Shown piece after piece: positions 9,479-23,012 of a DNA stretch of 50,756 bases. Position 1 is the stretch's first letter, and every line of letters starts with the position of its first letter. This stretch comes from Minisyncoccia bacterium. Its GTDB lineage: Bacteria; Patescibacteriota; Minisyncoccia; Phycocordibacterales; UBA5272. Below the pieces are notes generated by a model that was not told the DNA's origin, searched no databases, and saw only the letters and a list, made by a program, of their open reading frames with translations. A program made the translations under genes and the position numbers. The stretch is taken from positions 1 through 50,756 of the forward strand of contig JBDHUS010000003.1 of NCBI GenBank assembly GCA_039809325.1, given 5' to 3'.

Positions 9479-10837
9479 TTATATTCCTGTTTTTCCTATT
9501 AAATTTTTGAGAGTTCTCAAAGTCAAAGACACATCCAACAAAATAGATCTGTGTTTCAAATAATAAATATCATAAGAAAGTTTTTCTTTTGTAGCATCTG
9601 TTGCTATACCAAACTTTGGTACTGATTTTTGCTCTTGATATATTTGGGCGTAACCTGAAAGGCCAGGGGTAATGGTGTGACGGATACCGTAAAAAGGTAT
9701 TTGGTTAGAATATTCTTTTACAAGAGGTGGTATTTCTGGGCGAGGACCAATTAGTGAGAGTTCTCCGTTTATAATATTTATAAGTTGTGGAAGCTCATCA
9801 ATTCTTGTTTTGCGTAAAAATTTGCCAAATTTTGTTACTCTGCTGGCTTCATCTTTACTTGTGCCGTCTGAATTCTTTACTTGGGTCATACTTCTAAATT
9901 TATAAATCTCAAAGACTTCATTATTTTTACCCACTCTCTCAGACACATAAAATAAATCTCCTTTATCCTGAATCCTGAGTCCAATATATACAAAAGGATA
10001 GAAAATTAATGATACAAAAAAGGCGGGGACTGAAATAAGTAGATCAATAAATCTTTTACTTTTTTCATAAAAATTTCCTTTCTTTTGGTAAAGATTATTA
10101 AAGAACCATCCAGCATCTATATTTTCTAATGGAATTTTCTGCAAGACTTCTTCGTAGAGATCTGCGAAATTTACCACATCTACTTTTTCTAAAAGTAATT
10201 CGTAAAAGAGGGAAATAGAATTTTTGATATGTGGGTGATGCATATTTATGGCAAGCATATTAAAATTCCCTTCATGAACTTTATTTTTAATCCTTGTGTA
10301 TAAATCTAACTCTCTATTATCAGAAAGATCTATAAAATCTATTTTATTAATACCTAAAACTTTATTATTTGCCATCTCTTCTTTTAATTCTTGTAATTCA
10401 CTTCCTTCGGCGACAAGTAGTAAGTTTGTGGTCTTTGGAGCTTTTATAAATACTCTCACATATCTTCTCCAGCCAAATATTAGCCCACTAGATATTAGTA
10501 TATATATGATTAAAATTGTTTTTGGAGCGATAGTAAAAGAGGGTGAAGTGTAGAAAATAATTGCTCCAATTACCGAAGAGAGTATTTGGCTAGTTATTAT
10601 TCTTTTATTTAATTCTGTGTATATTTTGACAGACATTTTGTCATACAGGCCGTAAATGTAAAAAGCTAAAAGATTGATAATAATGATTAATAGAAAAGGA
10701 TAAAAGACTTTAGCAAATTCCGCTTCACCGATTATAGATAGATTTCTTATAGATAATGATATGTAAAGAGATAGGGAAAGGATAAAAAAATCGCAGAAAG
10801 CTACGAATATTCTCTTTGTGATTTTGGTTGAAATCAT
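9479..10837 (-). CDS. Priming polyprenyl-phosphate sugar phosphotransferase (WcaJ/WbaP-like)
   Basis: N-terminal TM helices; KRFIDL, YKFRSM, LRKTRIDELPQ, SLIGPRPE, PGLSGYAQ and DIYY motifs. Confidence 0.93.
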   Translation of the reverse strand: MISTKITKRIFVAFCDFFILSLSLYISLSIRNLSIIGEAEFAKVFYPFLLIIIINLLAFYIYGLYDKMSVKIYTELNKRIITSQILSSVIGAIIFYTSPSFTIAPKTILIIYILISSGLIFGWRRYVRVFIKAPKTTNLLLVAEGSELQELKEEMANNKVLGINKIDFIDLSDNRELDLYTRIKNKVHEGNFNMLAINMHHPHIKNSISLFYELLLEKVDVVNFADLYEEVLQKIPLENIDAGWFFNNLYQKKGNFYEKSKRFIDLLISVPAFFVSLIFYPFVYIGLRIQDKGDLFYVSERVGKNNEVFEIYKFRSMTQVKNSDGTSKDEASRVTKFGKFLRKTRIDELPQLINIINGELSLIGPRPEIPPLVKEYSNQIPFYGIRHTITPGLSGYAQIYQEQKSVPKFGIATDATKEKLSYDIYYLKHRSILLDVSLTLRTLKNLIGKTGI

Positions 10838-10888
10838 GTATATTTGTTTATAAGCATATTATACAGATTATTCTAAAAAAATAAAAGT

Positions 10889-11980
10889 ATGAAAATACTA
10901 TATATAATCACCAAAAGTAACTGGGGAGGAGCGCAAAAATATGTCTTTGATTTGGCGAAAAATATAAAGTCGGAAGAGCGGGAGGTGAAAGTGGCTTTTG
11001 GTGGAAACGGACTTCTTTCTCAAAAATTAAATGATGAGAAAATAGAAACAATACACATAAAAAATCTTGATAGAGATGTAAATATTTTAAAAGAATTTTC
11101 TGTGGCGAGCGAACTTTATTCTGTTCTAAAAAAAGAAAATCCAGATATTGTGCACCTTAATAGCTCTAAGATTGGAGCCATTGGATCACTTGTAGCGAGG
11201 CTTGCGGGGATAAAGAAAATAATTTTTACAGCACACGGTTTTCCTTTTAGAGAAGAAAGGCCTTTTTTACAAATAATTTTGATTAAATTTATTTCTTGGC
11301 TTTCTATAATTTTTTCTCACAAGACAATATGTGTATCAAAAAAAGACTATGAGGATGTAAAAGATTGGCTATTTGTACAAGATAAAATCATAACTATTCA
11401 TAATGGAATAGAGATAAATGAAAGTGTAAAAGAAAATAATAAGGAAGAAGGGGAAGTAAAAATAGTTTCAATAGGAGAATTAAATAAAAATAAAGGATTT
11501 GAATATGCTTTGCAAGCGGTAAACTTCTTAAAAGAGAAGGTAAAGAATTTTAAATATACAATTTTATCTTTTGGTGGAGATGAAAGAGAGAGTTTGGAAA
11601 AGCAAATCTCAGAATTGTCTTTAGAAAAATATGTAGATCTTATAATAACTAAAGAAAAAAGCGATAAACTTTTGAAAAATTTTGATATATATTTTATGCC
11701 ATCTATAAAAGAGGGGCTACCTTATGTTTTGCTTGAAGCTGGGATGAATTCTCTACCTATTGTAGCAAGTGATACAGGAGGTATAAATGAAATAGTAGAA
11801 AATTATAAAAATGGTTTTTTAATAAAGCCAAAAGATATAAATGGATTTTTACTTTCTTTAGAAAGATTGATAGCAGATAAAGAATTAAGAGAAAAAATGG
11901 GGCGAGAGGCCAAAGAGAAAGTACGGAGAGAATTTGATTTAGAAAAAATGTTAAAAAAAACAAAAGACATATATTTTTAA
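10889..11980 (+). CDS. Glycosyltransferase family 4
   Basis: WGGAQKYV, PDIVHLNSSK, FTAHG and EGLPYVLLEAG motifs. Confidence 0.93.
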   Translation: MKILYIITKSNWGGAQKYVFDLAKNIKSEEREVKVAFGGNGLLSQKLNDEKIETIHIKNLDRDVNILKEFSVASELYSVLKKENPDIVHLNSSKIGAIGSLVARLAGIKKIIFTAHGFPFREERPFLQIILIKFISWLSIIFSHKTICVSKKDYEDVKDWLFVQDKIITIHNGIEINESVKENNKEEGEVKIVSIGELNKNKGFEYALQAVNFLKEKVKNFKYTILSFGGDERESLEKQISELSLEKYVDLIITKEKSDKLLKNFDIYFMPSIKEGLPYVLLEAGMNSLPIVASDTGGINEIVENYKNGFLIKPKDINGFLLSLERLIADKELREKMGREAKEKVRREFDLEKMLKKTKDIYF

Positions 11981-11984
11981 AAAC

Positions 11985-12013
11985 TTGCAATTTTTCTAGC
12001 CTAATGATATAAT
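11985..12013 (+). promoter_or_regulatory. Sigma70 promoter of sRNA unit 1
   Basis: TTGCAA-N17-TATAAT with TG extension. Confidence 0.75.
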
Positions 12014-12019
12014 ATAATA

Positions 12020-12085
12020 AGTTAAGGAATTAATTTAGGTTTGGTAAGGATAAGGTTGGCCGAGTATTTCTATATTCGGCTTTTT
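12020..12085 (+). ncRNA. Candidate small RNA, array unit 1 (about 65 nt)
   Basis: Own promoter, C-free 5' segment, hairpin GGCCGAGTAT-TTCT-ATATTCGGCT followed by a T run; no ORF. Confidence 0.6.
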
Positions 12086-12087
12086 AT

Positions 12088-12115
12088 TTGCATTTGAATT
12101 GTATAGTAGTATAAT
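12088..12115 (+). promoter_or_regulatory. Sigma70 promoter of sRNA unit 2
   Basis: TTGCAT-N16-TATAAT directly after the unit 1 terminator. Confidence 0.7.
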
Positions 12116-12120
12116 GAAAT

Positions 12121-12186
12121 AGGTTTAAAGAATTATTAAATTGTTAATGGTTAATGAAATACCCCTGTTTCTACAGGGGTATTTTT
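12121..12186 (+). ncRNA. Candidate small RNA, array unit 2 (about 65 nt)
   Basis: Own promoter, C-free 5' segment similar to unit 1, perfect hairpin AAATACCCCTGT-TTCT-ACAGGGGTATTT with T run. Confidence 0.62.
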
Positions 12187-12200
12187 GATAATACAATCGC

Positions 12201-12229
12201 TTGCATTAATTTTTTTTATATGCTATAAT
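12201..12229 (+). promoter_or_regulatory. Sigma70 promoter of sRNA unit 3
   Basis: TTGCAT-N17-TATAAT with TG extension. Confidence 0.75.
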
Positions 12230-12234
12230 GTATT

Positions 12235-12295
12235 TGGTATTAAATGGATAGATGGCTTTAAAGGATAGGCTACAATATGTAGCTTATCCTTTAAA
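12235..12295 (+). ncRNA. Candidate small RNA, array unit 3 (3' end uncertain, may reach about 12332)
   Basis: Own promoter, C-free 5' segment, 18-bp hairpin TTTAAAGGATAGGCTACA-ATA-TGTAGCTTATCCTTTAAA. Confidence 0.52.
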
Positions 12296-12320
12296 AATAT
12301 CCTCTATATTTAAAATTTAA

Positions 12321-12388
12321 ATATTTTTTTTTCATATAAGCAGTTAGTTTTGAGTAGCCCTCCCGTTTCTACAGGAGGTCTTTTTTTT
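12321..12388 (+). ncRNA. Candidate small RNA, array unit 4
   Basis: T9-CATATAAGCAGTTAGTTTTGAGTA then hairpin GCCCTCCCGT-TTCT-ACAGGAGGTC and T8; promoter weak (TAAAAT 12311-12316), so it may be co-transcribed with unit 3. Confidence 0.55.
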
Positions 12389-12425
12389 ATTTTATTTTAT
12401 GATATTATTTATTAATAATATTATT

Positions 12426-12496
12426 GGGTCTATAGTTCAGTGGTAGAATAGCGGTCTCCAAAACCGTTGACCGAGGTTCGAATCCTCGTGGACCCG
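12426..12496 (+). tRNA. tRNA-Trp (CCA)
   Basis: Cloverleaf: acceptor GGGTCTA/TGGACCC, anticodon arm GCGGT-CTCCAAA-ACCGT, T arm CGAGG-TTCGAAT-CCTCG; 3' CCA not encoded. Confidence 0.97.
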
Positions 12497-12507
12497 CAAA
12501 ATTATAT

Positions 12508-13089
12508 ATGAAAGTATATTTCTGTTCACAACATATAAATATTACAGATAAATATTGGCAAAATAAAGCTTGCACTTTGTGTACTCTTTGGATGGCTTTA
12601 AAGTCTTTAAATGATGATTTTAATCTATCTCCAGATGAGCTTTTAAATGAAGCATTATTAATTAATTCTTTTATTGATCCTGGATATTGGAATCATTTAA
12701 AAATAGCAATACTTGCTCACAATCACGGCTCTCCAGCATACAATGAAGAATTTAAAAGTTTTCCTTTTGGAAAAGAGACAAAATATGCAGAATCAATAAG
12801 GGACTTTGGAGTAGAGAAGATTTTTAATTTTATAAAAAATAAAGAAGGATTTGTTATAGCTTCTGTACCAAAAGATTTTATACATTTTGATAAACCACAT
12901 TCAATATTGATTCATAATATAGAAGAGGTGGAGGATGGAGGTGAAATTAAAAAATATTTTATATATAATGATAGTGAAAAATTAAATGAAGAAGATGGGG
13001 CAAATTTAAAAGTATCAAAAGAAGAATTTAAAGAAAAATGGCGAAGACTTGGTATATTTATAAATAAAATTAATAATCAATATAAATAG
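12508..13089 (+). CDS. Peptidase C39-like (papain-fold) protein
   Basis: SQ...ACTLCTLWMAL, PHSILI and IYNDS match the Q/C/H/D layout of C39-like proteins. Confidence 0.65.
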   Translation: MKVYFCSQHINITDKYWQNKACTLCTLWMALKSLNDDFNLSPDELLNEALLINSFIDPGYWNHLKIAILAHNHGSPAYNEEFKSFPFGKETKYAESIRDFGVEKIFNFIKNKEGFVIASVPKDFIHFDKPHSILIHNIEEVEDGGEIKKYFIYNDSEKLNEEDGANLKVSKEEFKEKWRRLGIFINKINNQYK

Positions 13090-22460: not shown

Positions 22461-22799
22461 AGTCATATTGAATTGTTTTCTGCAACTTAAAGACATAATT
22501 AACATATAATATTTTTATATAAAATGCAATATTTTATTAAGAATAATGGTTGATAAAATAGAAAATCTCTTATTTTTCAATTTTTCATAAATCTTGACAA
22601 AAATTTTCCTTTTCGCCGCGACCTTACTTTATGGAAAAATAATAATGGAAAGGTTTGCTCTATGGCTTTATGACATGTGCTCGGCGTATTATATGTGAGA
22701 ATAAAAAGAATAAAAATGAATGAACTTGAATTTTTTGGTTGGTCTGTTGCCTGTGTTCGCAAAGTTCCAAAACATGTTTAATTTTTGTTTATATTTTTT

Positions 22800-22834
22800 A
22801 AAACCCTATCAAATATCATAGGGTTTTATTTTTT
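22800..22834 (+). terminator. Intrinsic terminator upstream of the grpE promoter
   Basis: AAAACCCTAT/ATAGGGTTTT stem with T-rich tail. Confidence 0.6.
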
Positions 22835-23012
22835 AATAACTATTTTTGCCCTAAAAATTATTTTATGATATTATTTAATTAACACTAAATCTGGGTGAAT
22901 TTATTAAAATACAAGAAATGAAAATAAGTTAGTGTTTTGTTGTTTTCCACTTATGCAATAATTTATTTGTGAAATTTAATAAAGATAAAAAGCTTAGGTG
23001 GATTTAAAAAAT

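Follow-up and report, generated by a model that had tools for sequence, protein, structure and literature searches.

A putative, tandem-expandable family of genes for small non-coding RNAs, so far seen in a single genus of Minisyncoccia

What fills 445 bp of DNA without an evident protein gene, in a genome whose ORF-free gaps have a median length of 70 bp? The question is raised by a spacer in a Minisyncoccia genome (G000; 511 kb in 33 contigs, 72% complete), one contig of which, C3, is the window analysed here, that is the whole stretch of 50,756 nucleotides, with a G+C content of ~26%. The spacer (11981-12425; positions are those of the window) runs from the stop codon of a GT4-family glycosyltransferase (10889..11980, + strand; Pfam Glycos_transf_1, E 1.3e-35) to tRNA-Trp(CCA) (12426-12497, +; detected by ARAGORN, Rfam 70.1 bits) and ranks 11th in length among the 393 ORF-free gaps of the genome. 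The first-pass annotation of this DNA had pointed to some 400 bp free of ORFs beside the tRNA gene, and this holds: the spacer has no ORF of at least 60 aa and one 27-aa TTG frame (12185-12268). Its downstream boundary is tRNA-Trp together with the promoter of that gene (12400..12497), which stand outside the family described below; the promoter is of the extended -10 type (TG at 12400-01, TATTAT at 12403-08, +) and lies in a block that is conserved at 12 loci of the genus.

The neighbourhood has some features of its own. Upstream, the spacer adjoins the edge of a glycan locus (9479-11980), where a Bac_transf sugar transferase on the - strand is divergent from the glycosyltransferase. Downstream, on the 3' side of tRNA-Trp, a 193-aa protein (12508-13089, +) has no Pfam match and resembles papain-like proteases of the Peptidase_C39_2 / C70 kind (Atlas features 0.97, structure TM 0.81); its nearest Atlas clusters are mostly Minisyncoccota, and no loci related to it were found in the genome contigs. 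DNA runs that contain at least half of the sampled words of the stretch come from activated sludge and bioreactors.

The spacer holds three promoter sequences of the form TTGCA(A/T)-N16/17-TATAAT, each of them exactly where it had been placed at first sight. A pattern scan gives P1 (TTGCAA-N17-TATAAT, 11985-12013), P2 (TTGCAT-N16-TATAAT, 12088-12115) and P3 (TTGCAT-N17-TATAAT, 12201-12229), all on the + strand, with TG-n in front of the -10 element of P1 and P3. For a pattern that was defined post hoc, after inspection of the data, TTGCAW-N16/17-TATAAT occurs four times in the window against 0.37 expected, a number that 0 of 100 shuffles reached; genome-wide (511 kb) there are 12 matches, three of which lie in this spacer. 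A generic sigma-70 scan shows no enrichment in the spacer, with 3 sites vs 3.2 expected. In fact, a TTGCAW-type promoter that abuts the T tract of a terminator also precedes ordinary genes, that for L32 on contig C2 among them, so that this type is the normal promoter form of the genome.

Four hairpins accompany these promoters, again as initially described, and three of the four are intrinsic terminators, with a G+C-rich stem-loop followed by a run of T. All are read on the + strand. The terminator hairpin of unit 1 (12058-12081) has the loop UAUUUCUAUA and then a U tract; that of unit 2 (12157-12184; inverted repeat I11) has the core CCCCUG-UUUCUA-CAGGGG; and that of unit 4 (12359-12378, by folding) has T8 shortly after it, at 12381-12388. 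The apical sequence (G)UUUCUA(C) is common to these three and sits on differing stems. The remaining hairpin, that of unit 3 (12257-12295; inverted repeat I1), is long, with 18-bp arms that are 94% complementary, and as it has no T tail it is no terminator. Folding z-scores are -5.2 for unit 2 (-22.6 kcal/mol) and -6.2 for unit 3. On the + strand of the spacer, our automated terminator scan reports unit 1 only; units 2 and 4 miss its tail/mismatch rule, yet they fold as a hairpin with a U run.

Together, these elements probably make up three independent sigma-70-type transcription units, which would produce small non-coding RNAs of ~70, ~68 and ~155 nt. The RNA predicted for unit 1 from its fold and terminator (12020..12089, +) would start 40 nt past the stop codon of the glycosyltransferase, and its leader contains AAGGA motifs (AAGGA occurs twice) and GAUAAGGUUGGCCGAG. 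Unit 2 (predicted RNA about 12121..12188, +) is supported by its fold, by the direct repeat D1 and by inverted repeat I11; it scores 59.7 bits with our model R1, of which it is a training member. The third RNA (about 12236..12390, +; from the fold and inverted repeat I1) would run through units 3 and 4, in the order 5' leader, hairpin 12257-12295, AU-rich linker, a leader motif that we call type C (12338-12352) and terminator. Four RNAs of 60-70 nt had been envisaged here, the last with its own start near 12322. Neither that start nor position 12338 has a convincing -35/-10 in front of it, and a single transcript of ~155 nt is more likely than two RNAs from units 3 and 4. The description of the locus as a series of self-contained modules thus applies to three units, which run from promoter to terminator, and fails for the fourth, which lacks a good promoter.

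The three units of the spacer are related to one another. They have in common the loop and the junction at which a T tract meets TTGCAT, and they are further linked by repeat D1 (78% identity over 23 nt; the only other direct repeat in the spacer is a 10-nt pair) and by alignment A1. At the junction, the unit 1 terminator and P2 overlap, the U tract of the one running into the -35 element of the other, and the same T-tract/TTGCAT junction is present in a relative, G004. The locus thus has the layout of an array of sibling sRNA genes, with three promoters and three terminators on one strand within 445 bp and with paralogous units. The leaders of the units have mostly diverged. Between paralogues they are mostly unalignable, with 5 of 171 leader pairs above the 99th percentile of the null, and the likeness of the unit 1 and unit 2 leaders, which had first suggested duplication, is outside the best 18 of these 171 pairs. 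A similar caution applies to composition. The C-free, G/U-rich leaders noticed at the outset are real as runs (58 and 70 nt without C in the spacer), but such runs are ordinary in AT-rich DNA, the window having 12 of at least 74 nt, and they are no trait of the family, since as many as 9-10 C per 45 nt occur in the homologous leaders of other species. We dropped C-free composition as a signal on these grounds.

What does the same spacer look like in relatives? We compared 14 other genomes (species) of the genus, labelled here with G numbers, and the spacer between the glycosyltransferase and tRNA-Trp is readable in ten of them. The number of modules at this one site ranges widely: none in G011, two in G009, four in G004 and, in G010, about nine by eye, with seven distinct same-strand terminators in the automated scan vs 0.5 expected. 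Six more spacers (G002, G003, G005, G006, G007 and G014) have one promoter-to-terminator unit each, with another loop. The modules of G004, G009 and G010 have loops of the form GUUUC(U/C)AC, and their stems differ from one another by paired changes. In an alignment of 15 modules, both partners have changed in 8 of 9 stem pairs, and the U-A pair that closes the loop is the same throughout. Pairing is built into this alignment, its hairpins having been selected as hairpins; its informative part is that the loop stayed fixed while the stems diverged and the leaders became mostly unalignable. Modules 3 and 6 of G010, a G002 module beside tRNA-Thr and the G013 modules stand outside all of our alignments.

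For a non-circular test, we searched the 15 genus genomes with the leader motif alone, the terminator being left unused. Leaders of different species can in fact be very similar, and 27 of 30 positions agree between the leader of the first G004 module and that of the first G010 module. We distinguish three types. Type A, GGUUUUUCAUAGGAUAUUGGAUU, is matched exactly in G002 (upstream of efp), in G004 and in G010, and with 2 mismatches in G011; the 72%-complete genome of the window gave no type A match. Type C, AAGCAGUUAGUUUUG, matches exactly in the window (12338-12352), in G010 (upstream of nusA) and in G014. The third type is GAUAAGGUU..GGYCGAG; the GATAAGGTT..GGYCGAG of unit 1 is also found in module 3 of G004 and in a G010 module upstream of nusA, which amounts to 3 matches in 15 genomes vs 0 in a reversed control. 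The sites that were new lie at unrelated places, namely 5' of efp in G002, 5' of nusA in G010 and after other genes in G011 and G014, where G014 holds a tandem pair, so that leaders of these types stand before genes as different as efp, nusA, a membrane-protein gene and tRNA-Trp. Every new site has a promoter at the expected distance, and each, except the second G010 module upstream of nusA, has a terminator with a UUUCUA, UUUUCUA or UUUUUA loop on a new stem.

The alignments by type, small as they are (5 and 4 sequences, from related genomes), repeat the picture. In type A, no variation is seen in ~20 of the first 23 columns of the leader, and both partners have changed in 8 of 9 stem pairs; in type C, both have changed in 4 of 7. 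Conserved motifs predicted to be single-stranded, together with a fixed loop and a compensated stem, form a pattern that is typical of functional small RNAs and that would be unexpected of decaying duplicates. Thus the idea of a duplicated, paralogous family, which the likeness of two leaders could not carry, is supported by stems that covary under a fixed loop and by leader motifs that recur across species at unrelated loci.

The family appears, so far, in one genus only. At least one member was found in 8 of the 15 genus genomes, with some uncertain assignments such as that on contig C6 of G013. G+C-stemmed UUUCUA hairpins were not found elsewhere in the window's own genome, where a TTCT tetraloop occurs in 2 of 180 terminator-like hairpins, and the other UUUCUA pattern matches that we inspected in the 15 genomes all lie within coding sequence and lack a stem. 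Model R1 yields ordinary terminators beyond its training loci, and a wider distribution was not seen in 26 relatives beyond the genus, where models R1-R3 return only ordinary terminators or marginal scores. The best new R2/R3 matches were rejected, one being the 3' end of a gene in G002 and the other coding sequence on contig C10 of G000. Among 80 metagenome loci around homologous glycosyltransferases, modules are present only in a few loci of the same genus; R1 gave no convincing match there, its best (L044, 31.1 bits) being a type-C-like module 3' of the orthologous gene.

To explain these results we propose, with moderate confidence, that the spacer belongs to a genus-restricted, tandem-expandable family of small non-coding RNA genes that act in trans. 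Each member would consist of its own promoter, a short and mostly unpaired 5' region of one of a few cross-species types, and an intrinsic terminator with a G+C-rich stem of 8-10 bp, compensatory variation and the conserved pyrimidine-rich loop UUUCUA. Copies may be gained and lost by tandem duplication of a terminator-plus-promoter unit, in which the U tract runs into the TTGCAT -35 element of the next promoter. We envision the RNAs as trans-acting riboregulators, in which the conserved 5' motif would serve as a base-pairing seed or a protein site and the UUUCUA loop as a second pairing site for a Shine-Dalgarno-like sequence, or as a handle for a common RNA-binding protein. In predicted folds the seed-like leader motifs are partly unpaired, and type A presents AGGAU in the loop of a mini-hairpin of 4-5 bp. 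By inspection, UUCUA of the loop is complementary to UAGGA with one G-U pair, and the loop could pair with purine-rich, Shine-Dalgarno-like sequence. Scans for mRNA targets in G000, at 72% completeness, gave duplex energies against 496 start regions that were no better than those of shuffled leaders, and a k-mer seed scan that equalled its reversed control; a single seed match near a start codon on contig C12 was rejected, the frame being spurious and in the same sense as a real gene.

Expression data came from four public RNA runs in the form of assembled contigs, which give no starts, ends or strand. One metatranscriptome contig of 151 nt matches 11943-12093 without differences and thus spans the glycosyltransferase stop codon, P1 and unit 1, in a library that may contain DNA. 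This contig fits read-through as well as it fits an sRNA and is no proof of a discrete small RNA. If it does represent RNA, the unit 1 terminator serves the glycosyltransferase mRNA as well, which probably stops there. In the same four runs no assembled contig covers 12094-12425, and the contigs that match the tRNA region are from other organisms and have loose ends.

Could the modules be neutral debris, that is, functionless leftovers of unequal crossing-over or slippage of the terminator-plus-promoter junction beside a tRNA gene? We consider this unlikely. A copy number between zero in G011 and ~9 elsewhere, together with paralogous leaders that mostly do not align, does fit weak constraint on many of the copies; tandem repeats on the 3' side of the G010 tRNA-Trp mark the locus as recombinogenic, the scans yielded no targets and the RNA contigs gave no evidence that the predicted RNAs are expressed. 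Against this stand leader motifs kept at ~20 of 23 positions across four species and three loci, and a loop that remained fixed while its stems were rebuilt by compensatory changes. Moreover, 0.4-1 kb of junk is seldom retained in genomes this small (0.5-0.7 Mb) and this compact (median gap 70 bp).

Less likely still is a role purely in cis, in which the terminators would keep transcription of the glycan locus from running into the tRNA-Trp promoter, and the promoters, with conditional read-through, would tune downstream genes. The layout is suggestive in this respect, with a terminator directly 5' of the conserved tRNA-Trp promoter at 10 of 12 genus loci, two G010 modules directly upstream of nusA in the same orientation, an RNA-library contig that spans the 3' end of the glycosyltransferase gene through unit 1, and a sub-threshold Rfam match to the rimP leader (E 0.013, 29.4 bits vs a gathering score of 47). 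But a single terminator would suffice as an insulator, six species have no more than one unit, and tRNA-Trp has its own conserved promoter. Insulation also needs no conserved 5' motifs, and the same leader types precede the unrelated genes efp, nusA, the membrane-protein gene and tRNA-Trp.

A bolder version of the trans-acting family, to which we give only a slim chance, is an array of cassettes, each joining a different 5' 'address' to the common UUUCUA 3' 'handle'. The handle would be read by a dedicated protein, perhaps the small RRM protein or the KH protein, the repertoire would be tuned by gain and loss of cassettes, and some addresses could be aimed at transcripts of a host or competitor. 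Life in attachment to host cells is generally assumed for these bacteria, and addresses of this kind would explain why no target was found in the bacterium itself.

The first-pass annotation had also considered protein sponges, RNAs that would titrate a binding protein through several single-stranded sites of GGA or G/U-rich sequence, and the chance of this is slimmer again. The AGGAU loop of the type A mini-hairpin, which we take to resemble CsrA sites, and the two AAGGA of unit 1 could be such sites, and all five genomes that were tested encode both a small RRM protein and a KH protein of the KhpA/B type (the RRM_1 gene of G000 is at G000:C2:5816-6025). Neither CsrA (PF02599), for which control genomes do match, nor Hfq was found in any of the five. 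The suggested co-occurrence with an RRM protein also gives little to build on, because the RRM gene is present in 35 of 41 related genomes, with or without modules, and its presence is nothing specific. Known sponge RNAs carry many binding motifs, whereas each RNA predicted here has 1-3, and the lack of C is neither unusual nor conserved. Scarcely credible, finally, is the reading of each module as a gene for a peptide of 13-27 aa, for although a TTG frame of 13 codons comes after AAGGAUAAGG in unit 1 and module 3 of G004 has a 27-codon ATG frame at the same place, the phase in which a frame passes through the loop differs between units 1 and 2, short frames show no conservation (those of G010 and G011 stop after 2 codons), and the paired substitutions in the stem fit RNA structure and not codons.

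Returning to the family of trans-acting RNAs, arrays of sibling sRNAs are already known. The NsiR1 RNAs of Nostoc sp. PCC 7120 are ~60 nt long and lie head to tail with a promoter for each copy; there are 12 copies, 7 of them identical, with one developmental promoter motif and known targets, and diverged copies at the edge of the array regulate different targets (PMC9045159). Our predicted units are likewise arranged head to tail with their own promoters, a build that recurs in G004, G009 and G010. Unlike NsiR1, the spacer copies have diverged in the leader, have a common terminator loop and have promoters that look constitutive, and Rfam scans gave no sequence relation between the two. The FopS RNAs of Bacteroides thetaiotaomicron are multicopy sRNAs with a single-stranded 5' stretch and a Rho-independent terminator, associated with an RRM-1 protein in a bacterium without Hfq; their 5' seed R1 is conserved and their copies are dispersed (PMC11697453). 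The likeness lies in the predicted single-stranded 5' part and terminator, in the encoded RRM protein and in Hfq not being found; the differences are that here the terminator loop is the common element, there are several seed types, and copies are in tandem. The link to FopS/RbpB that had been suggested found no backing in Rfam, where no such family reached threshold in the window and seven homologous loci, in a copy of the database that may lack a FopS model. At the gathering threshold, only tRNAs were found in the whole window, and permissive scans of 11800-12600 and the seven homologous loci likewise gave only tRNAs above threshold, the best Bacteroides sRNA match being BTnc060 (20.2 bits vs a gathering score of 228.9).

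Other classes offer partial parallels. LhrC1-5 of Listeria are tandem copies with their own promoters and terminators, and sRNAs of the LhrC type use pyrimidine-rich hairpin loops, including that of the terminator, to pair with Shine-Dalgarno regions. The tandem predicted units of the spacer, each with promoter, terminator and pyrimidine-rich terminator loop, are similar, but their loop is UUUCUA and not UCCC, and no target pairing was found here. DapZ and MicL are 3'-UTR sRNAs with their own promoter, which lies inside the gene; unit 1, 40 nt past a stop codon and probably with a terminator in common with the glycosyltransferase mRNA, is comparable, except that P1 lies after the stop codon. 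Sponges of the CsrB/RsmZ type are set apart by their CsrA/RsmA partner, whose domain (PF02599) is in 0 of the 5 genomes. Thus, the variant described here differs from the NsiR1 and FopS families in three features: the terminator loop as common element, several seed types, and a copy number from 0 to ~9 at one syntenic site. The pattern is unusual in that the terminator loop and not the seed is common to all members, and in that the copy number changes fast at one site. In a brief full-text literature search, no account of small regulatory RNAs came up for Patescibacteria, the Candidate Phyla Radiation or Saccharibacteria. For this large uncultured group with very small genomes, a family backed by comparison between species could open a way to study post-transcriptional control.

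Several other identities of the spacer were rejected along the way. A housekeeping RNA (SRP or 6S) shows no similarity to the spacer, and the modules are not conserved across the genus; a dispersed palindromic repeat of the REP/BIME kind does not fit G+C-stemmed UUUCUA hairpins at one locus in G000 and a handful in the genus; a guide array of the CRISPR/TIGR type would have a regular repeat family, which is missing, and every unit here has its own promoter and terminator. The modules were also rejected as tRNA remnants. Two further clusters of same-strand terminators in the genome (C2:7.8-8.3 kb and C15:8.7-9.6 kb) belong to ordinary genes and tRNAs.

Some observations concern other parts of these genomes. 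The SRP pathway was undetectable: the RNA models RF00169 and RF01854 and the Ffh M domain (PF02978) have matches in 0 of 5 genomes, and the SRP54 GTPase (PF00448), sought in 41 genomes of the order, gave short P-loop pieces and no real match, with a single piece just at the cut-off (22.5 bits); matches were obtained in all 14 control genomes. A brief literature search turned up no obvious report of this. In another genome of the order, an RRM gene (G031:C10:6933-7351) lies directly upstream of tRNA-Trp. The window also contains a candidate structured RNA (22560-22830, +), with a TTGACA promoter, ~230 nt of ORF-free and G+C-richer DNA, a terminator at ~22803-22826 and no Rfam match; right after it, at 22858-22882, the promoter block of tRNA-Trp recurs. 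The longest ORF-free gap of the genome, 1000 bp at G000:C6:24483-25482, contains a promoter as well as stretches rich in G+C; a large structured RNA, for instance RNase P RNA or tmRNA, may be encoded there.

Finally, G010 appears to read UGA as tryptophan. Its contig C2 (locus L017) carries a tRNA with the anticodon UCA that is 80.6% identical to tRNA-Trp(CCA) and lies ~640 bp downstream of it (the two are at 797-869 and 1503-1576 of the locus). Its alaS gene (L174) has 3 in-frame TGA, of which two fall on a conserved WW in the AlaRS of the window and the third on F, while alaS has no in-frame TGA in four other species. Between the two G010 tRNAs, on the reverse strand of L017, there are tandem 3' ends of tRNA-Trp, each followed by the same stretch of ~300 bp, partly N-masked, and these copies look like scars of repeated integration or duplication.
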